The position numbers and the translations under genes were made by a program. The notes beneath the pieces were generated by a model. That model saw only the letters and a list, made by a program, of their open reading frames with translations, did not search any database and was not told the origin of the DNA. From Acidobacteriaceae bacterium (GTDB lineage: Bacteria > Acidobacteriota > Terriglobia > Terriglobales > Acidobacteriaceae): DNA of 64,000 bases. Every line of letters begins with the position of its first letter. Position 1 is the first letter of the stretch. Location: positions 4,340-68,339 of the forward strand of contig DASRRO010000219.1 in assembly GCA_035656855.1 (NCBI GenBank), read 5' to 3'. Below, one piece after another: positions 4,294 through 55,672 of this stretch.

Positions 4294-7200
4294 ATGTCTG
4301 CATTTCTCCATAGGATCTGGACGTTGCGGCAAGGATCCGTCTTCTGCAAGCCGTACTGCTTTCTCCGCCTCGCGATCAAACCGATTGCGTCGCGCGCTTT
4401 CTCGGCGGCCCTTATCGCATTGGCGACGGGCGGAGCTCTCCTCTATGGGCAGGCGACCAACGGAACCATCAACGGAACGGTCACGGACCAGACCGGCGGA
4501 GTCGTCGCCGGAGCTGCGGTAACACTGACAAATACCGGCACCTCCGACGCGCGGAAAGCGGCGACGAACGGATCCGGCTTTTACGAGTTCACCAACCTGC
4601 CGCCGGGATCCTACAGCGTTGTAGCGCAAAAGGCGGGGTATCAGCGGTTGGTGCGCCAGCCCATCACTCTGCAGGTTGCGGGGACGCTGCTCATCGATAT
4701 GACCCTGGCGGTGGGCCGCGAGACGCAGCAGGTAGTCGTAACCGGGACGACTCCTCTGATCCAGGCGGAGAGTGACACGCTGGGCGCGGTCGTGGATCAG
4801 CGGGAGACCAACGAGATCCCACTCAACGGTCGCGATCCGATGGCGCTGGTGGCCCTGGTCCCGTCGGTGGTGCCGCAGGGGCAGTCGGAGCAAACCCCGA
4901 CGGGAACCAATCCTTTCGGATGGGGAAATTATCAGATCGGCGGCGGATTCGCGAACCAGAGCGTGACCTATCTCGATGGCGCGCCGGTTAACACGGAGTA
5001 CATCAACCTCACAGCGCTGATTCCAACCCAGGATTCCCTGCAGGAATTCAAGGTAATGACGAACAATCTGCCACCGGAGTACGGGCGCCTCGCGGGCGGA
5101 GCGGTGCAGTTTCGAACTAAGTCAGGCACGAATAATCCGCACGGCTCGGCCTACGAGTACCTGCGCAACAAGGTGCTCAACGCGAACACCTTTTTCGGGA
5201 ACCAGGCACACCTGCCGAACCCGGCCTTCACGCAAAACCAGTTCGGCATCAATTTGGGCGGTCCCGTCTATATTCCGCACGTGTACAACGGACGGAATCG
5301 AACATTTTTCTTCGTAAGCTGGGAAGGATTTGCGCTCCGGCAGGGAGTTACCTACAAGCAGACCGTGCCGACCGCTGCCGAACTGACGGGAAATCTGTCC
5401 GATCTGAACACGCCCATCTACGATCCGGCGACGACGTGCGGAGTAGCGGGAGGGCGGCCCTGCAATCCGGGAGAACCGCAATATGATCGGACGGCTTTCG
5501 GCGGGGGAGTCATCCCGAGCGGGCGGCTCAACTCCACCTCGCTCGCCTATCTGAAGACCTTCTTCCCGGCGCCAAATGTGCCCGGGGCTGCACCTGGGAC
5601 CCCGAACTTTACGACGAACGGATCCGCAGGGGGCAACAATTACGAGACGGTCGTGCATATCGATCAGAATGTATCGAGCAAGCAGCACCTCAACGGCCGG
5701 TATACGTGGTGGAAGAACAACAATCTTCCCACAGTTGCTTTCAATGGGATCTGCCAGGACCGGTGCGGGGAATTGTTCACAACCAACAGCTTCGTGCTGG
5801 CCGACGATTATTCGTTCAGCAGCAAGACCCTGCTCGATCTTCGGATCAGTTATATGCGTTTCAACTACTCCCGGTCGCCGCTGCTCAATAACTTCGATCT
5901 GACCAGTATCGGGCAGTCGACCGCATTGCAAAGTCAGGTGGAGTATCCCGGGCCGCCGGTCATGGTGGTTACCGGCTTCGATCCCCAGGGCATCTTCGGC
6001 AGTCAGGGAGCCGACAGTACGATTCACAACGCGACGGATGACGACCGGATTTCAGGATCGCTGACCCGATTCATAGGCAACCATACGTTGTCGTTCGGCG
6101 GTGAGTTTCTGCGGGCTACGTTCAACTACGTGCAGAACAATATTTCGTCGGGCGATTACAGCTTCAGTCCGGGGTTCACCGCGCAGAATCCGCTCACCGG
6201 CGTGGGCGGTCTCGGCCTGGCAACCTTCCTGCTGGGGTATCCGTCCAGCGGAAGCGCGGAGATCGCCGCGCCCCTCGCCTCCGAACAGTTGTATCCGGCG
6301 CTGTACCTCAATGACGACTGGCGAGTGCGGCCGCGACTCACACTGCATCTGGGACTACGTTGGGAAGATACGCAGCCGTTTACAGAGCGGCACGACCGGC
6401 TGAGCTACTTCGATCCAGGGGCAACGAATCCTGCACTCGGGGCCGCGGGAAGTTCCGCGCCGGGCGCGATCGGACTGGTACATTCCAGTACCCGCAGTTC
6501 GCGGTTTGCCATCAATAACAGCCTGAAGCAGTTTTCGCCCCGCCTGGGTTTTGCCTGGCAAATGTTTCCCAACACCGTGTTCAGTGGCGGGTACGGAGTC
6601 TTCTGGCTGCCGAACGATGTGACCGACTTGCCGTACACCGATCCCATCGATGCATCGACGACGGGTGTGGTTACCTCCATCAACGGAGGACTGACGCCCA
6701 GCGCGACGGTCGACAATCCCTACCCGCAGGGACTGGTCGCGCCCGTGCAGCGGGGATCGAACCTGCAGCAGACACTGCTGGGAACGGGGGGCAGCTATAA
6801 CCTGACGACCGATCCCTATGCTTACTCGCAGCAGTACAACTTCGGCGTGCAGCAGCAACTGGGGAGCAGCTTCATGTTCAGCCTCGTATATGGTGGGGCG
6901 AAGGGAACGCATCTGCCCTTCAGCGGTCTGAATATCGACACGCTGCCGGATCAGGATCTGTCCTTGGGGGCTGCCCTGGTGAATCAGGTGCCCAACCCGT
7001 ACTACGGAATTATCAGCTCGAAATACAGCCTGGGTGCGCCGACCATTCCCGCAGGCCAGCTCCTGCTGCCGTATCCCGAATATTCCGGGCTTGGAATCCA
7101 GGCGGACAACGTAGCCAACTCAACCTATAACTCCATGCAGGTGACGGCGCAGCAGCGATTCGCGCACGGCGCGTCCATCAACGCGGCGTACACGTGGGCG

Positions 7201-7872
7201 AAGCTGATCAGCGACACCGACACGCTGACCACCTGGCTGGAGCCCGGCGTCGCGGGCGTGCAGGATCCGAGGAACCTGAATGCAGAGAAGTCACTCTCTT
7301 CCGATGACGCCCGGCAGCGGCTGGTCGTGAGCTATGTCTACGATCTGCCCTTTGGCAGAGGCATGCGCTTCGGATCGAACGTCCCGGGAGTCCTGAATCA
7401 GCTGCTGGGCGGCTGGGGTTTTGGCGGCGTGACGACGGTGCAGACCGGCTTTCCGCTGGGCTTCACCACCGCCCAGAACCTGACCAACTCCTTCGGCGGA
7501 GGCTCGCGGCCCAATGTTGTGCCGGGGTGCAACAAAATGGTTCCAGGCAACGAGACGCAGCGGATCAATCAGTGGTTCAACCCGGCCTGCTTCACGCAGC
7601 CCGCTTCGTTCACCTTCGGCGACGAATCGCGGAACGATCCTGATCTTCGCGCCTCGGGCGTCGCCAACTGGGATGCGTCGATGTACAAGACCTTTCCCTT
7701 TACACACAACGAGGCAACGAACCTGCAGTTTCGCGCGGAGGCGTTTAACCTTTTCAACCGGGTCCAGTTTGGGTATCCGGGAACTCAGCAGGGTGCGTCG
7801 AATTTCGGCATCGTGAGCAGCCAGCTGAATAATCCACGATTGCTTCAATTCTCGCTGAGACTCAACTACTGA
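4294..7872 (+). CDS. TonB-dependent receptor-like outer membrane protein with N-terminal carboxypeptidase-regulatory-like domain
   Basis: GGAGG 6 nt upstream of ATG 4294; signal peptide; NGTINGTVTDQTGGVVAGAAVTLTN...GFYEFTNLPPGSY (CarboxypepD_reg); long beta-barrel region; C-terminal ...QFSLRLNY. Confidence 0.85.
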   Translation: MSAFLHRIWTLRQGSVFCKPYCFLRLAIKPIASRAFSAALIALATGGALLYGQATNGTINGTVTDQTGGVVAGAAVTLTNTGTSDARKAATNGSGFYEFTNLPPGSYSVVAQKAGYQRLVRQPITLQVAGTLLIDMTLAVGRETQQVVVTGTTPLIQAESDTLGAVVDQRETNEIPLNGRDPMALVALVPSVVPQGQSEQTPTGTNPFGWGNYQIGGGFANQSVTYLDGAPVNTEYINLTALIPTQDSLQEFKVMTNNLPPEYGRLAGGAVQFRTKSGTNNPHGSAYEYLRNKVLNANTFFGNQAHLPNPAFTQNQFGINLGGPVYIPHVYNGRNRTFFFVSWEGFALRQGVTYKQTVPTAAELTGNLSDLNTPIYDPATTCGVAGGRPCNPGEPQYDRTAFGGGVIPSGRLNSTSLAYLKTFFPAPNVPGAAPGTPNFTTNGSAGGNNYETVVHIDQNVSSKQHLNGRYTWWKNNNLPTVAFNGICQDRCGELFTTNSFVLADDYSFSSKTLLDLRISYMRFNYSRSPLLNNFDLTSIGQSTALQSQVEYPGPPVMVVTGFDPQGIFGSQGADSTIHNATDDDRISGSLTRFIGNHTLSFGGEFLRATFNYVQNNISSGDYSFSPGFTAQNPLTGVGGLGLATFLLGYPSSGSAEIAAPLASEQLYPALYLNDDWRVRPRLTLHLGLRWEDTQPFTERHDRLSYFDPGATNPALGAAGSSAPGAIGLVHSSTRSSRFAINNSLKQFSPRLGFAWQMFPNTVFSGGYGVFWLPNDVTDLPYTDPIDASTTGVVTSINGGLTPSATVDNPYPQGLVAPVQRGSNLQQTLLGTGGSYNLTTDPYAYSQQYNFGVQQQLGSSFMFSLVYGGAKGTHLPFSGLNIDTLPDQDLSLGAALVNQVPNPYYGIISSKYSLGAPTIPAGQLLLPYPEYSGLGIQADNVANSTYNSMQVTAQQRFAHGASINAAYTWAKLISDTDTLTTWLEPGVAGVQDPRNLNAEKSLSSDDARQRLVVSYVYDLPFGRGMRFGSNVPGVLNQLLGGWGFGGVTTVQTGFPLGFTTAQNLTNSFGGGSRPNVVPGCNKMVPGNETQRINQWFNPACFTQPASFTFGDESRNDPDLRASGVANWDASMYKTFPFTHNEATNLQFRAEAFNLFNRVQFGYPGTQQGASNFGIVSSQLNNPRLLQFSLRLNY

Positions 7873-8053
7873 ATCACCGGATCTGGTAAAGGTCCTGGCA
7901 CGACCGCGATGGCACTCCTCTGCCCGGCCACCTTGGTATACTTTTTCAGGTTCGTCGGACGGCGGTCGCGCGATCCATGCCTGCTATCCACAGGCCCTGC
8001 GGCGCAGGATAATCCGCCGCCGGGGAATCGTGCGCAAGGTATTTCTTTCAAAA

Positions 8054-8128
8054 GCGGGAGTAGTTCAGTGGCAGAACGTCAGCTTCCCAAGCTGAATGTC
8101 GCCGGTTCGATCCCGGTCTCCCGCTCCA
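8054..8128 (+). tRNA. tRNA-Gly (anticodon CCC), CCA encoded
   Basis: Cloverleaf read by hand: acceptor GCGGGAG/CTCCCGC, D stem GTTC/GAAC, anticodon stem TCAGC/GCTGA with loop TTCCCAA, T arm GCCGG-TTCGATC-CCGGT, discriminator T, CCA. Confidence 0.9.
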
Positions 8129-10145: not shown

Positions 10146-11375
10146 ATGGCTTTGCGCAGAACCATCGTGGCAGCGGCCGCGATAGCAACCACATTTGCCT
10201 GGATCGCAGGGTGCAAAAAGGAGACGCCGCCCGTGGCTGAGACACCCCAAAGCTCGCAACCCGCACAGCCCTCTGCGCCGGAGATCGGCGGCCAGCCGGT
10301 CGTGAAGCTGACGCGCGCCGCCACCGCCAACGGACAGCAACCCGAGTTCCGCTCGGTGACGGTGCTGCCCGGCCGCGGCATGAATGTGTTCCAGATTACG
10401 GCCGAACTGCCGGGCAAGGGCGAAATTCCTATCCTTCATGCGCCCAGCCTGGAAGAAGCGGCGTCGAAACTGAATGGCGGCCCCGGCGATGAGTACGGCA
10501 ACGCCAGCTTCAGCTTTGGCGGCGCCTTCCTGGTGCCGTATCCCAACCGGATCATCGGCAAGCTGTCGGCAGACAAGAAGACCGTGACCGCGGAATGGCA
10601 TGGCAAGAAGATCGTGCTGCCCGCCAACTGGCACAACAGCGAGCATCCCACTGAAGATCTCCACGCCATGCACGGCCTCATCCTGGCCTCGCACACTGAC
10701 GATGTGCAGACGATGCCGATTCCCGACGGCCAGACCGTGACCGGCGTGATCCACGCGGGCGACTTTGGCGGCCACTGGCTTTCGCAGACCGACCTCAGCT
10801 TCGTGATCTCGCTCACCGGCAAAGCCATCGATGCCACGATTGTCGCGAAGAATGTGGGTAAAGAGGATGAGCCGATCGCCATCGGCTGGCATCCTTACTT
10901 TGCCATTCCCAGCGGAGATCGCAAGCAGGCGTTGCTCCATGTTCCGGGCTCCGAAGTCGCGGTGGTCAATAACTACGGCGCTGTGTTTCCCACCGGCAAG
11001 CTGGTCCCGGCCAGGGGAACCAAGTGGGACTTCATGGCAGCCCAGGGAAAACCGCTCGACGATATCTATCTCGACGATAACTGGTCGAAGCTAACTCGGA
11101 CCGACGGCGCGGTAGACGTGAACCTCACCGATCCCGCCAGCAACTATGGCGTGAAGATCCTTGGCCTGTCACCGCACATCAAGACCGTGCAGGTGTATGC
11201 GCCGCCAACCCAGTCCTTTGCCGCCATCGAGCAGCAGTTCAACTTCGCCGATCCCTTTGGCAAAGAATGGCACGGGATGGATACCGGCATGGTGACGCTG
11301 AAGCCCGGCGCCTCAGTCGAGTGGCACGTCCGTCTGGAACTATTCCAACCGAACAGTGCGTCCGCCTCGAAGTAG
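10146..11375 (+). CDS. Aldose 1-epimerase family lipoprotein
   Basis: Lipoprotein signal ...FAWIAGC; mutarotase-like motifs HGLILASH and IGWHPYFAIP; GGGGAGA RBS before ATG 10146. Confidence 0.75.
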   Translation: MALRRTIVAAAAIATTFAWIAGCKKETPPVAETPQSSQPAQPSAPEIGGQPVVKLTRAATANGQQPEFRSVTVLPGRGMNVFQITAELPGKGEIPILHAPSLEEAASKLNGGPGDEYGNASFSFGGAFLVPYPNRIIGKLSADKKTVTAEWHGKKIVLPANWHNSEHPTEDLHAMHGLILASHTDDVQTMPIPDGQTVTGVIHAGDFGGHWLSQTDLSFVISLTGKAIDATIVAKNVGKEDEPIAIGWHPYFAIPSGDRKQALLHVPGSEVAVVNNYGAVFPTGKLVPARGTKWDFMAAQGKPLDDIYLDDNWSKLTRTDGAVDVNLTDPASNYGVKILGLSPHIKTVQVYAPPTQSFAAIEQQFNFADPFGKEWHGMDTGMVTLKPGASVEWHVRLELFQPNSASASK

Positions 11376-11437: not shown

Positions 11438-11521
11438 TACCCCACCCCCCCCGGGTATGGGGTATAGGCTTGCGACTGATTTCAAAGCACATGGAAGGTA
11501 ATACTTTTTGGGTATTACCTT
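11438..11521 (+). repeat. Variant copy (R1) of the intergenic module: G/C dyad, ATTTCAAAG, GGTAATAC/GTATTACC hairpin
   Basis: TACCCCA..TGGGGTA (11438-11464), ATTTCAAAG (11479-11487), AAGGTAATAC-tttttgg-GTATTACCTT (11495-11521); same blocks as R2 and R3 but in a different order. Confidence 0.6.
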
Positions 11522-11590
11522 CACTTGCGCCCTTCCGCTCCCAGAGAGTCCTCGAAGATCGGATGGCCGCCCTGTCTGAGCCGGCCTTCC

Positions 11591-11627
11591 AAAGAAAAAG
11601 CTCCGTTCGCGATGAACAGAGCTTTCC
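11591..11627 (-). terminator. Orphan Rho-independent terminator-like hairpin (T1)
   Basis: Minus strand reads GGAAAGCTCTGTTC-atcgc-GAACGGAGCTTT then TTCTTT; no minus-strand CDS upstream of it. Confidence 0.5.
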
Positions 11628-11828
11628 TTCTACCAAGGTTAGCGAACCTGCTAAGTCCGTACAAGAGAAATCCGGTAACCCTACAGTACGACGGTAAGGT
11701 TCGCCTTCGCTCCGGGCCAGCCCGGGTTTGGCCTTTAAATTAATTTCCGCCTTTAGCAACCTGGTAATTCCTTAGTCACCTCTATCTATTCGTTCGCTTC
11801 CCCGGGCAACAATCAACGTGGAGGTCCT

Positions 11829-13616
11829 ATGCTGCGCTTCCGTTGCGCATGTGTGCTTTCCGTCTGCCTGGTTCTCTGTTGTGCTGCAGCGTTCGCTCAG
11901 AACCCCGTCACGTTTACCGCTCACACTTCGACTGCCGGGCTTTCGCCGCAGGACGTGTATGCGGTCGATATCAACAACGACGGAATTCCGGACCTGATTG
12001 AGGACGCCACGAGTGGAGGCAACAACACTGTCTCCATTGCGATCGCGAACGGAGACGGCACATTCCAGGCTCCCAAGCAGCTCTATGTGCTCCCCATGAC
12101 CTACACCAACCGGGCTCCGATGGCCTACGGCGATTTCAACGGGGACGGCAAGGTGGATCTCGTCTTCGCCATGAACTACACAAACCAGCTGGTGGTTTTC
12201 CTGGGCAACGGAGACGGCACCTTTCAGGCGCCGAAGATTGAAACCGTTGCATTCCCCAGCAGCGAAAAATTCATAGGCGTGCAGCTGCTCGCCGCCGATT
12301 TCAACCACGACGGCAAGCTGGATCTGGCTGCCTTCGCCAGTGCGAATGCAGGCGGTTTGTATGTTCTGCCGGGTGATGGAACGGGAAGTTTCGGCGCGCC
12401 TCGTTCGATCCTTTCGCCGACCGTCACCGGGAATCTCGCCGTGGGCGACTTCGATGGAGACGGCAATGCGGACATCGCGGTTGCAGAGGGCATCGCCAAT
12501 GGAGCCAACGCACTGCACGTGTTGTACGGCAACGGGTCGTTCGGATTTACCGACAGCACGGTTTACACCACGTCTTCCAGCTACTTTTATTTCGCGAGCG
12601 GCGACATCAACAGTGACGGCCGCACGGATCTTTTCGGCTTTCCCAGTGGCAACAAGCTGATGGTGTGGACTTCGCAGCCAGACCGGCAATGGACCACATT
12701 CTCCATGGACACATCCGCCAATCTGGAGCAGAGCACCAACCTGACGGCACCGCCGTTCATGGTTGCCGATTTCAATGGTGACGGCAATATGGACCTGGGT
12801 GCCCTTGCGGTTCTGAGCGGTTCAGGGGGTACGTTTCAGGATGTGTTCGATTTCTTCCTTGCCAATGGATCGGGAGGCTACGAAGAACAGAGCGTGCCGA
12901 CCTCTGACATCGGCAATCTTGTTGCCGGCGATTTCAATCGTGATCTGAGGCCGGATGTGGCCACGATCGACGGGCACCTTGCGTATCCCGGCACAGGCGC
13001 GCAGATGACGGTGGGCCTGAATGAGACAGAAAACGGCAAGTGGAGCCCATGCGCGTATCCAGCCAAGGGGCAGGGAATCGCTCTGTGCTCACCAGGAAGC
13101 ACATCGGGAACTTCAGTTTCCTTCACCGCTTCTGCCAATTCTTTCGGCATGCTGCGCAAGATGGAGTTGTGGATCGACGGTAAAAAGATTGCTGAGCAGC
13201 ACCATACCTGGGCCAATCGGGCGTGGTTCAATCTGACCACCACGCTGAGTGCCGGCAGCCACAAAGTGACATTGTTTGCCGCCGACATCGATAACCGCCT
13301 GCAGAAATTCACCTCAACCGTGCAGGTGGGCGGCAGCAGTTGCAGCGCGCCGGCCTCAGCCGGCGTGAATCTGTGCCAGCCCGCCAGCGGAGCGACGGTC
13401 AGTTCGCCGGTGCAGGTGATGGCGAGCGCGACGGTGACCGGCAAGCTGGCGAGTATGCAGCTGTGGGTGGACGGAGTGAAGAAATACTCCGAGACCTCAA
13501 GCGCCACGCTGCAAACCTCGATCAGTTTGAGCGCCGGCTCGCACCGGTTCGCAGTGCTTGCTGTCAACACCTCGGGCCAGAAATGGGAGCAGGCTGTCAA
13601 CGCCACGGTGAAGTAA
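11829..13616 (+). CDS. Secreted FG-GAP (integrin-alpha-like beta-propeller) repeat protein with two C-terminal Ig-like domains
   Basis: Signal peptide; seven DxNxDGxxD motifs (DINNDGIPD, GDFNGDGKVD, ADFNHDGKLD, GDFDGDGNAD, GDINSDGRTD, ADFNGDGNMD, GDFNRDLRPD); duplicated C-terminal unit (MELWIDGKK...SAGSHKV / MQLWVDGVK...SAGSHRF). Confidence 0.8.
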   Translation: MLRFRCACVLSVCLVLCCAAAFAQNPVTFTAHTSTAGLSPQDVYAVDINNDGIPDLIEDATSGGNNTVSIAIANGDGTFQAPKQLYVLPMTYTNRAPMAYGDFNGDGKVDLVFAMNYTNQLVVFLGNGDGTFQAPKIETVAFPSSEKFIGVQLLAADFNHDGKLDLAAFASANAGGLYVLPGDGTGSFGAPRSILSPTVTGNLAVGDFDGDGNADIAVAEGIANGANALHVLYGNGSFGFTDSTVYTTSSSYFYFASGDINSDGRTDLFGFPSGNKLMVWTSQPDRQWTTFSMDTSANLEQSTNLTAPPFMVADFNGDGNMDLGALAVLSGSGGTFQDVFDFFLANGSGGYEEQSVPTSDIGNLVAGDFNRDLRPDVATIDGHLAYPGTGAQMTVGLNETENGKWSPCAYPAKGQGIALCSPGSTSGTSVSFTASANSFGMLRKMELWIDGKKIAEQHHTWANRAWFNLTTTLSAGSHKVTLFAADIDNRLQKFTSTVQVGGSSCSAPASAGVNLCQPASGATVSSPVQVMASATVTGKLASMQLWVDGVKKYSETSSATLQTSISLSAGSHRFAVLAVNTSGQKWEQAVNATVK

Positions 13617-16180: not shown

Positions 16181-16212
16181 GGGCGTCCCGAAAGGGACGC
16201 CCGTTTTGTTTT
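16181..16212 (+). terminator. Rho-independent terminator of groESL
   Basis: GGGCGTCCC-gaaa-GGGACGCCC followed by GTTTTGTTTT. Confidence 0.8.
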
Positions 16213-16244
16213 GCGACTCTCCTCAGCATACTTGATAATCATCC

Positions 16245-16256
16245 TATCATATGATA
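16245..16256. promoter_or_regulatory. Perfect 12-bp palindrome TATCATATGATA in AT-rich region upstream of TA locus 1 (putative operator)
   Basis: Lies 27 nt upstream of ATG 16283, between TTGATA (16232-16237) and the AGGAGG RBS. Confidence 0.4.
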
Positions 16257-16282
16257 ACAATTATGTTGATAGGAGGCATTCA

Positions 16283-16798
16283 ATGACCCTGCTCGTCGAG
16301 GAAACTGGCACCAGATTTCTGGCTGCTGATCGGGTTTGGATCGCTACCGCTTTGCTCCATATGGAAAATCCAAAGCGGGAAGATTTCTCCAAACTTGAAA
16401 TTCGCGACCGTGGGAAAAAAGAGGGGTTTGTTGAGAAGACCAACACCTTCCAGATCCATGTCAACCAGCATTGTGTTGCAAATCGAAAACCGGATACGGT
16501 GAATCACCGGATGCTTTTCCGAACCATTCAAGGCAGGCGACGGCTTTTCCGCGAAGGCGACACCACGTCGCCAGGAAGGGTTGGCAAAATTACTCCAAAT
16601 CGCGAAGAAATCCCTTCCAGGTACCACTATCTGCTCGATTGGTATCTAAAATGGGCGGCTAAACTGTCCCCCGGGAGTGAGGGGAACGGCGGCCCGGCGT
16701 CGGATCCATTGTTGCGCCTCAGAGGCTCCGGCCGCGAAATATGGAAGCACGAGCATGCCGATGAGTTTGTTCGGAAGCTGCGCGAGGGCTGGGAATGA
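16283..16798 (+). CDS. Putative antitoxin, atypical 171-aa protein, partner of the PIN toxin
   Basis: AGGAGG RBS at 16271-16276; 4-nt ATGA overlap with the PIN gene; C-terminal tail DPLLRLRGSGREIWKHEHADEFVRKLREGWE resembles antitoxin tails; the N-terminal ~120 aa has no recognisable RHH, AbrB or HTH fold. Confidence 0.6.
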   Translation: MTLLVEETGTRFLAADRVWIATALLHMENPKREDFSKLEIRDRGKKEGFVEKTNTFQIHVNQHCVANRKPDTVNHRMLFRTIQGRRRLFREGDTTSPGRVGKITPNREEIPSRYHYLLDWYLKWAAKLSPGSEGNGGPASDPLLRLRGSGREIWKHEHADEFVRKLREGWE

Positions 16799-17220
16799 GC
16801 CGCATCTTCTGGGACACAAGCCTGTTCATTTATTTGTTTGAGGATTACGGAAAGCACTCTGAACACACGGCCCAGCTTCGCCAGAAAATGCTTGTGCGAG
16901 GCGATGAGTTGCTCACATCAACGCTGGCAATTGGCGAGCTCCTCACCGGCCCTGAAAGAAAAGGTGAAAAGCAACTGTGTCAGGATTACGAGGAGGCAAT
17001 TCGATTGGCCGCCGTTGTTGTCAGCTTTGACCTCAAGGCAGCACAGAGGTATGCGCAGCTGCGAGCCCGACCCCCGAAAATTCCACCCCCTGACGCCATC
17101 CAACTCGCCTGTGCGGCAAGTGCCGGTGTCGACCTTTTCCTGACGAACGACACGCGCCTGCATAATCTGCACATCGACGGAATACAATTCATCACATCCG
17201 TGGAGCGGGCACCGTTGTAG
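16795..17220 (+). CDS. vapC: PIN-domain ribonuclease toxin (VapC-like)
   Basis: IFWDTSLFIY (Asp), AIGELLTG (Glu), PPPDAIQLA (Asp), LFLTNDTRL (Asp): the PIN acidic tetrad. Confidence 0.85.
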   Translation: MSRIFWDTSLFIYLFEDYGKHSEHTAQLRQKMLVRGDELLTSTLAIGELLTGPERKGEKQLCQDYEEAIRLAAVVVSFDLKAAQRYAQLRARPPKIPPPDAIQLACAASAGVDLFLTNDTRLHNLHIDGIQFITSVERAPL

Positions 17221-17832: not shown

Positions 17833-18072
17833 GGTCCATCGTAGTATTGACGCCCCCTCCTGGGGGAAAGGCCCCAGAAAATTGCCTTCGGCCCGTGCCA
17901 GGTCGCGCATCCAGGTCCGGCGTCAGACCTGTCTCAAGGTGCTGATCCACCAGGCGGATTCCGAGCCGAAAGCACGCCGCTCCCGATAGCCTCACACCCA
18001 TGACCTTCGTACCGCGTTCACTGCCGATTCTTCTTGCCTCAGGGCACCGCGAATCCTAAGCTCAAGGCAGGG

Positions 18073-18110
18073 AAAGCTCTGTCCGCAAACGCGAACAGAG
18101 CTTTTCTTTT
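18073..18110 (+). terminator. Orphan Rho-independent terminator-like hairpin (T2), paralogous to T1
   Basis: AAAGCTCTGT-ccgcaaacgcga-ACAGAGCTTT followed by TCTTTT; no plus-strand CDS upstream. Confidence 0.5.
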
Positions 18111-18175
18111 GCGGACCCAGCCCCGCGGTCATCCCGACCCCGGTTCCCGCGGCCCAGGCTGCGGAAGTCCCGGCT

Positions 18176-18287
18176 CTTTGAAATCGTCCTCGGAAGGCCC
18201 GATCAGGGTAATACCCAAAAGGTATTACCCTCACGGCCGCGCAGAATCTGCAACTTGCCAGAGCCTACCCCCCTGGGGGGTACCCCC
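18176..18287 (+). repeat. Four-block intergenic module (R2) upstream of the alpha/beta hydrolase gene
   Basis: CTTTGAAAT (18176-84), AGGGTAATACC-caaaa-GGTATTACCCT (18205-31), CGCAGAATC (18240-48), GGGGGGTACCCCC (18275-87). Confidence 0.65.
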
Positions 18288-18330
18288 TCTGGCCGTAAGA
18301 TGGTGCACATTGCCGCTTCGGAGGTTCTCC

Positions 18331-19449
18331 TTGCTCCCGATTCGCTCCCGCTGTCTCGGCTCTTTCGCTGCCATCGCACTCCTTGCCGCTGCCTTCAATG
18401 TCGCAGCGCAGGCGCCGGCGCCGAGCTATCCGCCAACCCACTGGCCGACTCGCGATGGCGTTTACATCATCCACGATTTCCATTTTGGAAGTGGCGAAAT
18501 GCTGCCCGAGCTCAGGCTCCATTACCTGACACTGGGCACGCTGCATCGCGACGCATCGGGTCACGCGGACAACGCGATCCTTCTGCTGCACGGAACCGGA
18601 GGCAACGCGCACTCGCTGCTGAATCCCGTGTTTTCCGACGTCCTCTTTGGTCCCGGCCGGCCGCTCGATATCACGAAATACTTCATCATCCTGCCGGACG
18701 ACATCGGGATGGGCGAGTCGAGCAAGCCGTCCGACGGCCTGCGAATGAAATTTCCGCACTACGACTATGACGATATGGTCCGCTCGCAGCACGCCATGCT
18801 GCTCGAAGGTCTCCACGTCGATCGTCTGCGGCTGATTCTTGGCACTTCGATGGGCTGCATGCAGAGCTTCGTCTGGGGCGAAACGTATCCTGGTTTCGCG
18901 AACGCGCTCGCGCCCTTCGCCTGCATGCCCATCGAGATTGCCGGACGCAATCGCATGTGGCGTTACATGGCGATGCGGAGCATCCGCGACGATCCGCAAT
19001 GGGATAACGGCAACTACACGCAGGAACCGGCGGAAGGGCTGAAAGGCGCAGCGGATTTTCTGATCATCGCCGGCTCGGCTCCGCAGCAGATGCAGAAAGA
19101 CGATCCAACCCGCCAGCAGGCAGAGGACTATGTCAACAGGACAGTGAGCCGAACGATCGAGCACACCGACGCCGATGACTTTCTTTACTACTTCGACGCA
19201 TCGCGCAACTACAATCCCGAAGCCCGGCTGAGCACGATCAAAGTGCCGGTCCTGTGGATCAACTCCGAAGACGACTTCATCAATCCGCCGGAACTGAAGA
19301 TGGCTTCCGAACTCGCGAAGCGAATGCCGCATGCGCGCTTCGTCCTGGTTCCAGCGTCGCTGAATACCTTCGGCCACGGAACGCACACGCACGCCGCGGT
19401 TTGGAAGGATTATCTCGTACAGCTCCTGCAGGAGTCGGCGAAGAAATAG
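18331..19449 (+). CDS. Secreted alpha/beta-fold hydrolase
   Basis: TTG 18331 preceded by GGAGG (18320-24); signal peptide ...AAFNVAAQA; LLLHGTGGNAHS and nucleophile elbow GTSMGCMQ. Confidence 0.75.
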   Translation: MLPIRSRCLGSFAAIALLAAAFNVAAQAPAPSYPPTHWPTRDGVYIIHDFHFGSGEMLPELRLHYLTLGTLHRDASGHADNAILLLHGTGGNAHSLLNPVFSDVLFGPGRPLDITKYFIILPDDIGMGESSKPSDGLRMKFPHYDYDDMVRSQHAMLLEGLHVDRLRLILGTSMGCMQSFVWGETYPGFANALAPFACMPIEIAGRNRMWRYMAMRSIRDDPQWDNGNYTQEPAEGLKGAADFLIIAGSAPQQMQKDDPTRQQAEDYVNRTVSRTIEHTDADDFLYYFDASRNYNPEARLSTIKVPVLWINSEDDFINPPELKMASELAKRMPHARFVLVPASLNTFGHGTHTHAAVWKDYLVQLLQESAKK

Positions 19450-20944: not shown

Positions 20945-20972
20945 GGGGATAGGGGTTAGGGGATAGGGGTTA
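20945..20972 (+). repeat. Heptad array (GGGGWTA)x4
   Basis: ggggata ggggtta ggggata ggggtta, starting 8 nt after the stop at 20937. Confidence 0.85.
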
Positions 20973-23795: not shown

Positions 23796-23808
23796 GGTTC
23801 CGCCATAG

Positions 23809-23871
23809 TACAGGGTGCGGCGGACAGGGTACAGGGTACAGGTTGCGGGTTACAGGTTACGGGCTACAGTG
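23809..23871 (+). repeat. Heptad array, 9 units (TACAGGG-like)
   Basis: tacaggg tgcggcg gacaggg tacaggg tacaggt tgcgggt tacaggt tacgggc tacagtg. Confidence 0.85.
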
Positions 23872-29889: not shown

Positions 29890-30327
29890 TCAGGCGGTTG
29901 CGGCGGTCGGAAACTTTTCGCAGTGGGCCTTGAGGCTGCGCGCTTCGGTCTTCACGTATTCCGCGATGCGTTTGGCGTACATGCTGCCGAGAATCGCGCC
30001 GAGAAGCCCTTCTGTGGAGAAGGAGAGCTCGACTTCCGTAGTGGCGCTGTCGCCGATGAGGCGATGGTCGGCGATCATGGTGGCGCCAGGGGCTTTCTGG
30101 ATCCAGGTGAAGGCCTTATGCGGTGCCAGCTCAACCACCTCGTAAACAGCGGGACGCAGTTTGGGCTGGGTGATGCGGTAGCGGGCGCCGAGACGGAGTC
30201 CGTCGGGAGTAAGGGGCTGGACGTGCTGGACGGTCGGGGTCCAGGTGGGCCAGCGCTCGACGTCGGCAAGGACGCGCCAGATGTCAGCGGGAGTGGCCTG
30301 GATGATGACGCGCTCGACGGTCTGCAT
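29890..30327 (-). CDS. SRPBCC-family protein
   Basis: MQTVERVIIQATPADIWRVLADVERWPTWTP... is a typical polyketide-cyclase/SRPBCC N-terminus; AAGGAGG RBS. Confidence 0.75.
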   Translation of the reverse strand: MQTVERVIIQATPADIWRVLADVERWPTWTPTVQHVQPLTPDGLRLGARYRITQPKLRPAVYEVVELAPHKAFTWIQKAPGATMIADHRLIGDSATTEVELSFSTEGLLGAILGSMYAKRIAEYVKTEARSLKAHCEKFPTAATA

Positions 30328-30402: not shown

Positions 30403-30511
30403 GGGGTACCCCCCCTGGGTCGAGGCATGCCGATTGCGTTGATTCTGCGGGACCTGCAGGGTAATACCCTGAGGGTATTACCTTCCGCGAGCCACTCTTG
30501 TCATTTCAAAG
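30403..30511 (-). repeat. Four-block intergenic module (R3) upstream of the SRPBCC gene
   Basis: Read on the minus strand: CTTTGAAAT (30511-03), AAGGTAATACCC-tca-GGGTATTACCCT (30484-58), CGCAGAATC (30449-41), GGGGGGGTACCCC (30415-03). Confidence 0.65.
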
Positions 30512-30555
30512 ATCGAAGCCGATTGCCGGCCTGGGCCGGGGCTTTGCGTCGCAAT

Positions 30556-30582
30556 GAAAAAGCCTCGCGGCTGGCGAGGCTT
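30556..30582 (-). terminator. Rho-independent terminator of the peroxiredoxin-like gene
   Basis: Minus strand reads AAGCCTCGC-cagc-CGCGAGGCTT followed by TTTT. Confidence 0.75.
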
Positions 30583-30697
30583 GTTGGGACATAAATCTCC
30601 CAGTTGTCAGGATAGAAGTGGGGCGCGGCGAGGGCAAGAGGAATCGGCTGGCGAGACGGTACGAAGGTAAGGGAACTTGATTCGGACAGTGTGACGT

Positions 30698-32300: not shown

Positions 32301-32328
32301 CAGCGGACAGCGGACAGCGTACAGGCGC
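32301..32328 (+). repeat. Heptad array (CAGCGGA-like), 4 units
   Basis: cagcgga cagcgga cagcgta caggcgc; fills the 35-nt gap between two convergent stop codons. Confidence 0.75.
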
Positions 32329-38896: not shown

Positions 38897-41698
38897 TTAC
38901 TTCACGCCGTAGACATCGATTTCGCCCTGGGGATTGGTGACGGTGGTGAGGTCGTGTCCGGTGGAGATGTAGACCTTGCCGTTGGCCACCACAGGCGAGG
39001 TGAATTTGATGCCATAGCCGGGCGTATCCGCGGAGTTCTGGCCGCTGTCCCAGAGCTCATTGGGATAGCTGGCCGCGGAGAAGGCGCGGAGCGTGGCATC
39101 GGTGGGCGGTTGGGTGGTGCCGGGATTGCTGGGATCGCTCTGGGTGTTCTGGAGGGGGAAGCCCTCGTCGATCATCCACACGATGCCGTCGTTGGTGCCG
39201 TTGGCGGAGATGAAGGGGCTGGTGCCGCGGGTGCCCTGCTGGACCGCCGGCGTGGTGTCGGCGAAGGGCGATAGTGTTCCGGAGTATTCGAACTGGCGCA
39301 CGCCGCCGGGGGCGGTGGAGGACGTGGGCGTGACGCCGAGGTAGACGTAGTTGTTGAAGTACGCGGAGGTTCCGAAGATCTCGTAGGAAGTGACGTTAGC
39401 GTTGTTGACGCCGCTGGAGTCAGTGCAGGAACTGGGGTAGGTGCTGCCGTTGGTCAGGCCTGCGCCCCAGACCTGCATCTGCAGGGCGCCGGAATCGTTG
39501 GAGGTTTCGTGGCCGAGATTGCCGCTGTTGACCAGGTACATGGTGCCGGTTTTGCCGCCTGCAATCAGGGTGGTGGTACCGGGGATGAGGATGAGACCGC
39601 CTGCAGCGAGATCAGAGTCGTTGCAGTCCATGTACTGGTAAATGCTGGGCGTGAAGTAGTCGCTGGGCTGCATGGTGCCGGTGGCGCCGGAGGTGGGAGT
39701 GGGCGGGAACTTCAGCACCGAGTCGGCGAAGGCACTGGTGCCGTTCCACGGACCGTTGCCGGTGGTGATGTAGACGTTGCCGGAGCTGTCGGCGACGGGG
39801 CCGCCTGAACCCATCCAGACTCCGCCTGCGCTGGCGTAAGTGCCTTCGCCGTTGAGGGCGGTGCTGGAGTTGAAGACGCCGACCTGGGCGAGGCTGGAAG
39901 CGTTATAAGCAACGAGCCAGCCGCTGTGGCAGCCACCGAACCCGATGTAGACGTTGCCATTGGCGAGGAGCAGAGCGGCGCGCTGAATGCAGGAGGTATC
40001 GAGCGTCTGGATGCCGCCAACCGAAGCGCTGTTGGTGGCGGAAACCGAAACGTTGAGAGTAACGGGGCCGCCGAATTTCTCAGCGCCGGTGGTGATGTCG
40101 AGAGCGTGCAGGCGGAAGAAGCCGGCGCTGCCCGAGGCAATTTGCGCGGAGACGACATAGAGGGTCCCGGTGGAGGGATCGATGACCGGGGTTGAGGTGA
40201 CGCCTTCATACGGCTTGATGGGCGCGGCGGTGAGGGGGGTTTCGCCCGACTGCAGGAGCGAGACCTGCCAGAGCGGCGAGCCGGCGGTATCGGCGTCGAA
40301 GGCGTAGACACTGTCGTGCTCGGTGGCGACGTAGAGGACGTTGTGCTTCGCGCTGTTGATGGTGACGCCGGACATCAGCAAGGGCTCGGCGTAGGCGTAG
40401 CCGTCGATGGGCAGCGAGAAGAGCTTGCCGAAGGTGGCCGGGACGACGTTGGACGGGGTGAGGATTGTCTCGTTGGCGTTGAGGCCGCTGCGGTTGGCAT
40501 CGACGTGCCAGGTGGTGATGTTCACCCCGGACACCGCTGCGGTGATGGTCGCGGTGGTATGGCCGCTGACGGTGTTCGCCGTGGCCGTGATGGTGGTGGT
40601 TCCGGTGGCGGCGGCGGTGGCGAGGCCGGAGCTGTTAATGGTGGCGACGGAAGTATCGGAACTGGTCCAGGTGGCTGTGCTGGTGATGTTGCCGGTGGTG
40701 CTGTCGGTGTAGGTGGCGGTGGCCGTGAACTGCTGGGTGGCTCCCGTGGCAAAGCTCGGGTTAGCCGGCGTGACGGCGATCGAGGAAATGGTCTTCGCGG
40801 TGACAGTGGCGGTCGTCGAACCGGCGATGCCGGTGAGAGTGGCGGTGATGGTGCTGGTGCCCGCCGCGACACCGGTGGCCAGGCCGGAGGCGTTAATGGT
40901 CGCGGCGGAGGTGTTGGAACTGGTCCACGTCACCGTTGAAGTGACGTTTTTGGTCGAACTGTCACTGTAGGTAGCCGTTGCGGTGAATTGTTGGGTGGCT
41001 CCGACGGCGACACCGGGATTGGCCGGTGTGACGGCGATGGATGTGAGCGTCGGCGCCGTCGGCGCGGGGACTGTAAGGGTGGTTGTCCCGGAGACGCCGC
41101 TGAGCGCTGCGGTAATAGTCGCGGATCCCTGTGCGACACCGGTGGCAAGGCCCGCGGCATCAATGGTGGCGACGGCGGTCGCGGAGCTGGTCCATGTCGC
41201 CGTGGTAGTGACATTTTTAGTGGAACCGTCGCTGTAAGTAGCCGTGGCCGTGAACTGCTGCGTGGCTCCGGTGGTCACGGTGGGATTAGCGGGAGTCACC
41301 GCGATGGAAGAAAGCGTCGGGGCTGCGGCGGCAATCGTGAAAGCGCTGTTGCCGTTCACGCCGCTCAGTGAGGCCGTGACGGTGGCCGATCCGGCGGCGA
41401 CAGCGGTGACCATTCCGCCGGAATTGACGGTGGCGACCGACGCGGCGCTGCTGGTCCAGCTGACGGAGGTGGTGACGTTGGCCGTGGAGCCATCGCTGTA
41501 ACTGGCTGTTGCTGTGAGCTGCTGGGTAGCGCCGACGGCAATGCTGGGAGTGGCGGGAGTGACGGCCAGGGCGGTGACCGATTTTGCAACAAGCCGAGGT
41601 CCGGAGGAGCCACCGCATCCACTGAGAAGCGCGATCACGCTAAGGGAAAGAAAAATCACAGCGGACGACCAACAGTGGCGGCGTAAATGGGGGCTCAT
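38897..41698 (-). CDS. Lipoprotein with four Big_2 (bacterial Ig-like) domains and a C-terminal PQQ-like beta-propeller
   Basis: AGGAG RBS; lipobox LLSGC; four ~88-aa units (IAVTPANP..GATQQFTATATYSD..T..VT...TWTSS); propeller motifs such as LYVATEHDSVYAFDADTAGSPLWQ. Confidence 0.8.
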   Translation of the reverse strand: MSPHLRRHCWSSAVIFLSLSVIALLSGCGGSSGPRLVAKSVTALAVTPATPSIAVGATQQLTATASYSDGSTANVTTSVSWTSSAASVATVNSGGMVTAVAAGSATVTASLSGVNGNSAFTIAAAAPTLSSIAVTPANPTVTTGATQQFTATATYSDGSTKNVTTTATWTSSATAVATIDAAGLATGVAQGSATITAALSGVSGTTTLTVPAPTAPTLTSIAVTPANPGVAVGATQQFTATATYSDSSTKNVTSTVTWTSSNTSAATINASGLATGVAAGTSTITATLTGIAGSTTATVTAKTISSIAVTPANPSFATGATQQFTATATYTDSTTGNITSTATWTSSDTSVATINSSGLATAAATGTTTITATANTVSGHTTATITAAVSGVNITTWHVDANRSGLNANETILTPSNVVPATFGKLFSLPIDGYAYAEPLLMSGVTINSAKHNVLYVATEHDSVYAFDADTAGSPLWQVSLLQSGETPLTAAPIKPYEGVTSTPVIDPSTGTLYVVSAQIASGSAGFFRLHALDITTGAEKFGGPVTLNVSVSATNSASVGGIQTLDTSCIQRAALLLANGNVYIGFGGCHSGWLVAYNASSLAQVGVFNSSTALNGEGTYASAGGVWMGSGGPVADSSGNVYITTGNGPWNGTSAFADSVLKFPPTPTSGATGTMQPSDYFTPSIYQYMDCNDSDLAAGGLILIPGTTTLIAGGKTGTMYLVNSGNLGHETSNDSGALQMQVWGAGLTNGSTYPSSCTDSSGVNNANVTSYEIFGTSAYFNNYVYLGVTPTSSTAPGGVRQFEYSGTLSPFADTTPAVQQGTRGTSPFISANGTNDGIVWMIDEGFPLQNTQSDPSNPGTTQPPTDATLRAFSAASYPNELWDSGQNSADTPGYGIKFTSPVVANGKVYISTGHDLTTVTNPQGEIDVYGVK
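40535..41578 (-). repeat. Tandem ~264-nt coding repeats (four Big_2 units)
   Basis: Recurrent GCCGTGAACTGCTGGGTGGCTCC-like blocks at about 264-nt spacing; in frame within the CDS. Confidence 0.8.
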
Positions 41699-50011: not shown

Positions 50012-50109
50012 CAGCGTACAGGGTTCAGGGTGCAGCGTACAGGGTTCAGGGTGCAGCGTACAGGGGGGAAGAAGAACAGGGTACAGGGTGCAGGTCACAG
50101 GTTGCAGCC
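50012..50109 (+). repeat. Heptad array, 14 units, with 21-bp higher-order repeat
   Basis: cagcgta cagggtt cagggtg appears twice in full (50012-50053), followed by cagcgta and further degenerate heptads up to tgcagcc. Confidence 0.9.
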
Positions 50110-55635: not shown

Positions 55636-55637
55636 AG

Positions 55638-55672
55638 CAGGGTGCAGGGTGCAGGATGCAGGGTGCCGGGGC
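55638..55672 (+). repeat. Heptad array (CAGGGTG), 5 units
   Basis: cagggtg cagggtg caggatg cagggtg ccggggc; starts 3 nt after the stop at 55635. Confidence 0.85.

Follow-up and report, generated by a model that had tools for sequence, protein, structure and literature searches.

Several families of bacterial repeats offer precedents for the element described here. Bacterial interspersed mosaic elements of the BIME-1/RIB-RIP type are mosaics of extragenic palindromes that carry a site for integration host factor (IHF) between the palindromes, lie at gene 3′ ends or between convergent genes and occur in many copies (PMC3184786). Correia elements of Neisseria (CREE or NEMIS) are non-autonomous intergenic insertions of 100-150 nt or more with an IHF site, promoters and effects on neighbouring genes, and BOX elements of Streptococcus pneumoniae have a modular boxA-boxB(n)-boxC composition in which the number of internal modules varies (PMC3184786). 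In Acidobacteria, TIRYT genes have been reported together with families of repetitive extragenic palindromes (REP) and terminal inverted repeats (TIR) (Di Nocera et al. 2013, PMC3733652). We analysed a 64-kb stretch of Acidobacteriaceae DNA (contig DASRRO010000219.1; hereafter the window), in which an initial annotation had recognized a module of four short blocks upstream of an alpha/beta hydrolase gene and an SRPBCC gene and had suggested a shared operator, promoter or leader RNA as possible roles. The window stems from a soil-type metagenome (JGI 3300036780). On balance, we consider these blocks to be the right half of a non-coding mosaic element of ~270-300 nt that is present in many dispersed copies in a clade of Acidobacteriaceae. 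The best reading of the element is a new BIME- or Correia-like mosaic insertion that would join a small promoter-terminator unit to a protein-binding DNA module.

The presence, order and orientation of the four blocks were borne out at both places where they had been noted, here called R2 and R3 (R1, R2 and R3 are the three copies within the window; L-numbers designate related loci compared with it):

18176-18184 (R2, + strand) and 30511-30503 (R3, - strand): block 1, CTTTGAAAT
18205-18231, + strand: block 2 of R2, the dyad AGGGTAATACC-CAAAA-GGTATTACCCT, a perfect 11-bp inverted repeat
18240-18248, + strand: block 3 of R2, CGCAGAATC
18275-18287, + strand: block 4 of R2, GGGGGGTACCCC(C), in full GGGGGGTACCCCC
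30511-30503, 30484-30458, 30448-30440 and 30414-30403, - strand: the four blocks of R3

The blocks are separated by 20, 8 and 26 nt in R2 (18176-18287) and by 18, 8 and 25 nt in R3 (30511-30403), and the sequences between them are unlike. The inverted repeat, which had been called perfect, is so in R2; in R3 it reaches only 10/11, with the outermost pair mismatched (AAGG.../...CCCT). The dyad pattern occurs at three sites in the window against 0.00 expected from window shuffles, and the three window copies match a profile of the module with E values from 4e-19 to 4e-17. The two-copy, four-block module is real but incomplete, as it missed a third copy, R1, as well as ~180 nt of similarity further upstream. 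This colinear similarity reaches 17995 in R2 and 30676 in R3, and in all three copies it takes in a hairpin plus T-run before reaching the block ACCTTCGTACCG...CCGATTC..CTTGCC. The parts of the three copies are:

17995-18287, + strand: whole element R2, ~290 nt in the three-copy alignment, with the four blocks as its right half
17992-18153 and 18197-18295: profile matches to the left half (E = 2e-35) and right half (E = 1e-18) of R2
18003-18014, + strand: upstream motif ACCTTCGTACCG of R2, followed after 9 nt by CCGATTC at 18024-18030 (high-information columns across 63 copies)
18034-18039 and 18057-18062, + strand: promoter-like pair P1 of R2, TTGCCT and TAAGCT, 17 nt apart
18071-18110, + strand: terminator-like hairpin GGAAAGCTCTGTCC...GAACAGAGCTTTTC of R2 followed by a T-run, fold energy -23.2 kcal/mol
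18151-18161, + strand: small hairpin GGCCCAGGCTG of R2
18173-18184, + strand: block GCTCTTTGAAAT of R2, containing block 1
18240-18259, + strand: block CGCAGAATCTGCAACTTGCC of R2, block 3 with its continuation
18268-18287, + strand: G/C-rich end CCCCCCTGGGGGGTACCCCC of R2, the right edge of the element, containing block 4
30403-30676, - strand: whole element R3, from the alignment and from left-half and right-half profile matches
30668-30657, 30637-30632 and 30614-30609, - strand: left parts of R3, ACCTTCGTACCG, TTGCCC and TATCCT
30600-30553, - strand: hairpin with T-run of R3, called as a terminator-like site by the scan
30537-30527, - strand: part of R3 between the hairpin with T-run and block 1, GGCCCAGGCCG
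30484-30458, 30449-30440 and 30419-30403, - strand: right parts of R3, the dyad, CGCAGAATCA and the G/C end
11440-11703, - strand: whole element R1, the most diverged of the three copies (left half E = 2e-38, right half E = 4e-17)
11695-11684, 11664-11659, 11641-11636 and 11627-11591, - strand: left parts of R1, ACCGTCGTACTG, TTGTAC, TAACCT and the hairpin with T-run
11521-11495, 11487-11476 and 11455-11440, - strand: right parts of R1, the dyad, CTTTGAAATCAG and the GGGGGGGGTGGGG end

Further copies in relatives were sought with a dyad scan of 185,579 species genomes and with profiles, which revealed a family widespread in Acidobacteriaceae. The scan returned at least 116 loci, mostly in metagenome-assembled genomes (MAGs) of Acidobacteriaceae, and the exact dyad recurs at no fewer than 7 loci in MFD04660_bin19, 6 in MFD05512.bin.1.68 and 5 each in SMAG_U5616, JOPF003 and JOPF096. 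Among the matches listed, 66 oriented copies were compared for flanks, genomic context and IHF-like core; in these the other blocks of the initial annotation are colinear around the dyad in the same order, and left-half profile matches are found at most loci upstream of the dyad and oriented like it. The consensus begins with ccATGACCTYCGTACCGT-N8-CCGATTy-N2-CTTGcc-N17/18-cTAnnCTgAAaa and, after ~8 nt, a hairpin. Its middle comprises a small hairpin GGCC-ca-GGCC and the block GCTCTTTGAnA, then a variable 20-160 nt before the dyad. The right part reads (a)gGGTAATACC-N5-GGTATTACCc(t), 15 nt, AATCAR-N4-(T/A)TGCC, ~10 nt, a C-run, a G-run and T(A)CCCC or TGGGGG. The small hairpin also appears as CCACC-ca-GGTGG or CCGC-tca-GGCGG, and GCTCTTTGAnA is kept while its distance to the dyad varies. 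A short subfamily of ~150 nt lacks the left half and has a TGCACCA-N4-TGGTGCA hairpin before the dyad; another has the loop CTGCG or CTCAG, with an A-run replacing the G-run, and its dyad modules are arranged in tandem (L008, L011, L019 and L039).

The family appears to be undescribed. A comparison with Rfam 15, including Acido-1 and Acido-Lenti-1, matched the element to no described RNA family: only tRNA was found in the window and in 16 element-bearing loci, and nothing relevant around R1 and R2 at E values up to 10. Plasmid and phage collections gave no match to the element; five viral contigs carry the dyad by chance, without other element parts. Searching the literature for the dyad sequence brought up nothing but primers and unrelated sequences, and the literature on Acidobacterial repeats or small RNAs yielded nothing describing the element.

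We next consider where the copies lie. Gene contexts were called with a simple caller based on GC content at third codon positions (GC3), which recovers the Pfam-supported genes of the window. Among the 66 oriented copies, the upstream gene is co-oriented with the element in 44 and opposed in 13, and the downstream gene, callable for 60, is opposed in 37 and shares the strand of the element in 23. The intergenic regions are convergent in 24 cases, co-directional in 25 (18 with the element in the gene direction) and divergent in 3, and in many copies the G/C end falls within ~20 nt of the stop codon of the convergent gene. This is the distribution of REP/BIME, SPRITE and similar repeats (PMC3184786), not of a 5′ regulatory element.

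Comparison of orthologous sites with and without the element points to its insertion as a unit. At the R3 locus, the AhpC and SRPBCC genes are separated by 370 nt in the window and by a similar length in L034 and L070 (AhpC 93% identical). Spacers without the element measure 120 nt in L118 (AhpC 92%), 94 nt in L120 (81%) and 67 nt in L122 (77%). Orthologous sites are thus filled in L034, L070 and L119 and empty in L118, L120 and L122; on inspection, no recognizable terminator hairpin with T-run was seen at the empty loci, where the next promoter begins almost at the AhpC stop codon. The hydrolase locus was compared across 80 orthologous, metagenome-derived loci, of which only L124, L125, L128 and L152 have the element (4/80, against 76/80 without it). 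Two of these copies are old: in L128 (400-500) the dyad has decayed and the AATCAG-N4-TTG block and G/C end remain, and in L152 (1330-1470) the dyad is replaced by another palindrome, GTTATC-aaaatc-GATAAC. Homology with the empty site in L126 resumes at CTCTGGCCGTAAGATGG (CTCTGGCCG), directly past the G/C end.

Both neighbouring genes have promoter-like signals of their own, outside the element:

30378-30372 and 30356-30351, - strand: ECF-type promoter of the SRPBCC gene (extracytoplasmic function sigma factor type), GGGAACC-N15-GCGTAT, with core GGAAC-N17-CGTA
18296-18301, 18321-18325 and 18331-18333, + strand: -10-like TAAGAT, ribosome-binding site (RBS) GGAGG and TTG start codon of the hydrolase gene

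The ECF-type promoter sits between the R3 element and the RBS and is kept in 9/9 orthologous loci (the window, L034, L070 and L118-L123), whatever the upstream gene. The hydrolase -10-like TAAGAT lies downstream of all four blocks, and CCGTAAGATGG is kept with the RBS in at least 11 element-free orthologues, including L126, L129, L134, L143, L149, L153-L155, L158 and L191. The contrast between filled and empty orthologous sites indicates that the element inserted as a whole composite and that the proximal promoter of neither gene depends on it. We noted a motif, GGCCGTAAGATGG (window 18291-18303), ~30 nt before the hydrolase start, which is kept in many orthologues without a conserved -35; it may be a signal of some other sort, or else the -10 of a promoter that is extended or depends on an activator.

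These observations bear directly on the proposal that the module is a shared operator or promoter, or a cis-regulatory leader, of the adjacent downstream gene (hydrolase at 18331, SRPBCC at 30327), a reading that we now regard as very improbable. R2 and R3 do have a co-oriented gene within 45-75 nt, and the downstream gene is on the same strand in 23/60 copies, some of them 6-50 nt away. Against this, hydrolase and SRPBCC are functionally unrelated genes, 37/60 downstream genes are convergent, and R1 in its own orientation has no downstream gene at all, being flanked by two + strand genes, an aldose epimerase gene that stops at 11375 and a divergent FG-GAP gene that starts at 11829. Nor do the blocks behave as a promoter retained with its gene: they are absent from 76/80 hydrolase orthologues and from L118, L120 and L122, where the proximal motifs, and the RBS in the hydrolase case, remain. 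A leader RNA is contradicted by the promoter-like motifs of both genes, which lie downstream of the blocks. The suggested pairing of a C-rich arm with the RBS needs a transcript start upstream of the blocks, and none is indicated. The G/C mini-hairpin that would supply this arm is not conserved, alternating among GGGGGGTACCCC, GGGGGGTGGGGG and a C-run followed by an A-run, and in place of a riboswitch-like multi-helix structure there are only isolated hairpins, with no covariation in the dyad and equal folding energies on the two strands. At R2, the -35 position of the hydrolase promoter is now taken up by the element, which replaced the earlier sequence there and could modulate that promoter. 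A cis-regulatory role is contradicted in general, with a possible side effect at R2 only.

The initial suggestion of selection on the blocks without a recent duplication fared better, being borne out by the width of the family and by sequence identities. For the latter, block boundaries were taken from paralogues and identities were measured in orthologous copies (R3/L034/L070/L119 and R2/L124/L125; the variable segment of L119 has an 85-nt insertion). Identity ranges over 0.87-0.94 for the blocks and 0.53-0.77 for the spacers, against 0.60-0.73 at fourfold-degenerate sites of the SRPBCC and hydrolase genes next to the element. The spacers, close to the fourfold sites in identity, thus drift near-neutrally, and it is the blocks that are maintained. 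We take this as an argument that every copy has some effect, as a decaying selfish insertion would not give block-only conservation.

We then turned to what the left half might do. The string ACCTYCGTACC occurs 34 times in 1.2 Mb of sequence, always within the element. A pair TTGnnn / (T/C)AnnCT was found in 48/63 left halves, separated by 17 nt (28 copies), 18 nt (19 copies) or 19 nt (1 copy), and its information is highest in TTG and in the A(-11), C(-8) and T(-7) positions, while the intervening positions are free. Information at TTG together with -11, -8 and -7 is the signature of a sigma70-type promoter (-35/-10 recognition), and we infer that P1 is a promoter. The hairpin that begins ~8 nt after P1 looks like an intrinsic terminator where the T-run follows. 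Two types of this hairpin exist. The one in all three window copies, type 1, reads GGAAAGCTCTGTCC...GGACAGAGCTTTTC and precedes a T-run; type 2, CAGTGGGGATnnTCCGCC-cag-GCGGAnnATCCCCATYG, occupies the same place without an adjacent T-run. By RNAalifold the hairpin after P1 is the sole conserved stem of the left half. In 25 copies of the type 1 hairpin, G-U pairs number 33 on the forward strand against 15 on the reverse, the hairpins of R1, L048, L110 and L008 are stable only in the forward orientation, and the type 2 hairpin has a forward G-U pair in most copies. The forward bias in both types indicates that the left half is read as RNA on the strand of the initial annotation. As judged from sequence, one strand bears both a putative promoter and an intrinsic terminator, the arrangement by which a small-RNA gene is recognized. 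The gene upstream of the element is divergent at R1 and R2, so at these copies the terminator can only serve P1 and the left half would be a self-contained unit. A small open reading frame (ORF) at the left edge was rejected as a candidate: some copies have an ATG (MTFVP...), and others have TTA or GTA or 1-nt indels that break the frame.

The features of the left half bring in the main alternative, that the element is a trans-acting small-RNA gene whose many paralogous copies form a regulon; we rate this as possible but rather unlikely. A factor bound at ACCTYCGTACCGT would control P1, and the product would be a 40-55-nt hairpin RNA or a read-through RNA of ~250 nt, details that are as tentative as the proposal itself. 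In the long form, which we put forward with no greater confidence, the hairpins would be a protein-binding scaffold and the variable spacers would give target specificity. The promoter-like geometry with its exclusive upstream motif, the forward G-U pairs in both hairpin types right after P1, the purifying selection on the blocks in each orthologous copy and the layout of conserved handles around variable segments all speak for such a gene. Short copies that lack P1 lie directly after a co-oriented gene, which would make the right half forward-transcribable in every case. This account is opposed by the scarcity of RNA signals elsewhere: there is no conserved RNA structure past isolated hairpins, neither the dyad nor the G/C block favours the forward strand, the G/C end lacks a T-run, and Rfam gave no match. 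In most copies a strong terminator separates P1 from the right half, and within the 64-kb window the variable spacers have no antisense complementarity beyond chance.

Under the mosaic-element reading, the right half most likely acts as a double-stranded DNA site rather than as RNA. The dyad sequence itself, not merely its pairing, is conserved in L119 and L124, copies found via other element parts, and the L125 dyad differs by one substitution (GGTAATGCC). Pairing stops at 11 bp. At broken outer pairs, A-C (21) outnumbers G-T (9), which does not favour a forward RNA hairpin; no covariation was seen in the dyad, and the right half folds better on the forward strand in 29 copies and on the reverse in 29. 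On both strands, RNAalifold detected no multi-helix structure in the right half, just the dyad hairpin in isolation and a short G/C stem, and found no long-range pairing of block A with the G/C end or elsewhere. For the small hairpin, the TGCACCA hairpin and the G/C block, neither G-U versus A-C counts nor folding energies told the strands apart. The G/C end varies, being a palindrome GGGGGGTACCCC/GGGGGGTACCCCC in some copies and GGGGGGTGGGGG or a C-run followed by AAAAAAA in others, and has no T-run. We also observed that the dyad loop alternates among CAAAA, CTCAG and CGCAG within each orthologous group, with CTCAG in R3, L034, L124 and L125 and CAAAA in R2, L070 and L119; such switching suggests either that the loop is constrained or that copies undergo gene conversion.

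Past the dyad, nearly every copy has a block that begins precisely at +15, with the consensus AATCAR-N4-(T/A)TGCC. The IHF core consensus is WATCARNNNNTTR. This pattern is perfect in 12/66 copies, always at +15, and matches at 8/9 positions in 16 more, R2 included, with the proviso that the consensus may not be the Acidobacterial one. We treat the putative IHF site as a lead, not a result.

Several promoters within the blocks were tried by eye and rejected. The GG-GC spacing does not fit a sigma54 (-24/-12) promoter on either strand, ECF-type or sigma28-type promoters have no partner element at the right spacing, and a forward promoter with CTCTTTGAnA or TTGCCA as its -35 has no conserved -10 at 16-19 nt downstream. 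A reverse promoter over the dyad, TTGATT-N17-TAATAC, has constant spacing but a hexamer without the final T, and is kept as a minor possibility; the shared hairpin terminates poorly in the reverse direction, which counts against it.

The palindrome also raises the question of a REP/REPIN-type or IS200/IS605-derived element, whose GGTAATACC hairpin would be recognized on single-stranded DNA by a Y1 (HUH) transposase of the RAYT (REP-associated tyrosine transposase) or TIRYT type. We consider this origin improbable. Five RAYT-like genes occur in 4 of ~70 Acidobacteriaceae loci, directly upstream of the element in L048 and L110, and the lack of TIRs and of an obvious target duplication is as in HUH elements; the CGCAG loop variant is of the C(GNA)G type, which we take to be a stable DNA triloop. 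The RAYT-like genes are, however, flanked by GGCACGACT..AGTCGTGCC, GTCCACG..CGTGGAC or GCGCGGCAT..ATGCCGCGC and never by the GGTAATACC dyad, which starts AGGGTAAT and carries neither a GTAG nor a CGTC tag. The conserved hairpin occurs once, inside the element, instead of subterminally at both ends, and such an origin leaves the conserved non-palindromic blocks and the promoter unexplained. The RAYT/TIRYT-like genes themselves (L110:6630-7215, L020:100-700, L096:700-1420 and 7150-7900, L048:3200-3810) are surrounded by hairpins GTATCAGGGCACGACTtcAGTCGTGCC, CCCACCCTGTCCACGatgaagcCGTGGACAAGGATGGG or GCGCGGCATnnATGCCGCGC. The GTATCAGGGCACGACTtcAGTCGTGCC hairpin is also found alone in L018, L060, L073 and L082; in L125 it adjoins the element, and in L058 it lies inside. 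These hairpins are separate REP-like families in the same genomes.

The dyad has a counterpart outside Acidobacteria. An identical GGTAATACC-N5-GGTATTACC occurs in ~20 loci of Rhizobiales and related Alphaproteobacteria, where it resembles VapB/AbrB operators: it sits between a TTGACT -35 (promoter-like sequence TTCTTGACTTGTTC) and the start codon (ATG) of a gene for an AbrB/VapB-type antitoxin (MRVTEKGQVTIP...). The dyad is probably the operator of this toxin-antitoxin operon, and by analogy indicates that a sequence of this kind can function as an operator for a protein. There it is a single-copy operator before a gene, without the other blocks of the Acidobacterial element, and the identity may be a coincidence, as some tens of chance matches are expected in 596 Gb. 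The Rhizobiales loci include L002, L005, L015 (3742-3764), L016, L024, L091, L107, L114 and L116, among others.

The element works like the BIME-1/RIB-RIP, Correia, BOX and SPRITE mosaics but belongs to none of them. With BIME-1/RIB-RIP it shares an extragenic mosaic build with conserved non-palindromic motifs, a bias to 3′ ends and convergent positions and many copies per genome, together with a candidate IHF-type site between two palindromes, proposed here from a partial consensus match. It differs in having no sequence similarity, no GTAG tag and no cognate RAYT seen, and in being larger, with a promoter-like unit and an intrinsic terminator. With Correia elements it shares non-autonomous intergenic insertion, presence/absence polymorphism, an internal IHF-like site and promoter-like elements and, as proposed here, an influence on the transcription of neighbouring genes. 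Correia elements have 26-bp TIRs and a TA target duplication, neither of which the Acidobacterial element shows, and their promoters face outward into neighbours whereas P1 faces an internal terminator. The tandem dyad modules recall BOX; SPRITE and BOX belong to another phylum, are unrelated in sequence, and neither has been reported with an invariant dyad plus IHF-like site or with an upstream promoter motif of its own. The REP/TIR families connected with RAYT/TIRYT are likewise hairpin repeats of the same genomes, with RAYT-like genes adjoining two element copies, but the published TIR motif GGGGWSAS is unlike the G/C end of the element (GGGGTACC or GGGGTGGG), and the dyad never flanks a transposase gene in the ~0.5 Mb of sampled loci. 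As far as our searches show, the combination of a promoter-terminator unit, an invariant dyad and an IHF-like site has not been described.

Collectively, these comparisons suggest how the mosaic element might work. It would insert as a single unit into intergenic DNA, mostly just past gene 3′ ends. The upstream motif (ACCTYCGTACCGT-N8-CCGATT) would direct a sigma70-type P1 to make a 40-55-nt hairpin RNA, and the hairpin after P1 would also halt transcription entering in the forward direction from the upstream gene. A dimeric sequence-specific protein may occupy the 11-bp dyad, with an IHF-like bend at the adjacent AATCAR-N4-TTG, and the G/C-rich end would close the element; the effect on neighbours would then be insulation and termination rather than activation. 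Binding by this protein and by IHF, as well as the mode of spread, is what we infer from conserved sequence. A more speculative and rather doubtful extension is that the element is a mobile non-coding cassette kept by its host, consisting of a factor-controlled small-RNA promoter coupled to a DNA site, made up of dyad and bend, for a new protein, which spreads to dozens of loci without TIRs or an adjacent transposase and whose RNAs form a large paralogous regulon, or whose RNA and protein together drive propagation.

Several observations weigh against an insertion element of this kind. No target duplication was found, the flanks of the nearest empty sites being too diverged to define one. On inspection, the left end ccATGACCTTCGTACC and the reverse-complemented right end share at most GTACC, and nothing with the GGGGGGTGGGGG variant of the right end. 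No cognate transposase for the element was found. With none of these features, mobility is argued from presence and absence at orthologous sites. Purifying selection on each vertically inherited copy fits a host function better than a purely selfish element, and the gene-context counts depend on the simple GC3-based caller. The promoter reading faces difficulties too: a scan for the strict E. coli consensus did not call P1, the -10 matches that consensus at 3/6 positions, and a promoter firing directly into a terminator is odd, while the type 2 hairpin, without an adjacent T-run, may allow some copies to be read through the right half. In the candidate IHF site, the TTR part of the pattern is moderately conserved, the actual consensus being (T/A)TGCC.

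Acidobacteriaceae abound in soil, yet the non-coding part of their genomes has hardly been explored. The element is large for a bacterial interspersed repeat, with selection holding its blocks individually in vertically inherited copies. Should P1 be active, the copies would constitute a large small-RNA family or reveal a new DNA-binding factor with dozens of chromosomal sites. If the element is only an insulator or terminator repeat, it would still provide a ready marker for insertion polymorphism and a warning against reading such blocks as gene-specific regulators.

Other repeats and genes of the window were noted alongside the element. The 35 nt before a tRNA gene (8054-8125), at window 8020-8053, read GGGGAATCgtgcgcAAGGTATTtCTTTCAAAAG and contain short strings recalling element blocks (GAATC, GGTATT, CTTTCAAA), which may be chance. 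Intergenic tandem arrays of 7-nt units lie at 23808-23869, 50012-50065, 55637-55670, 20945-20972 and 32301-32324, with units GTACAGG / CAGGGTA / GCAGGGT and also GGGGATA and CAGCGGA; similar heptamer arrays are found inside or adjoining elements in L124, L125, L075, L048, L011, L038 and L066. Four tandem units of ~264 nt, 62-74% identical, at 40533-41587 are probably repeated domains of a large - strand gene. About 0.8 kb from R2, a PIN-domain (VapC-like) gene at 16795-17220 overlaps the end of an ORF at 16211-16798, and this ORF pair (16211-17220) is probably a toxin-antitoxin pair.

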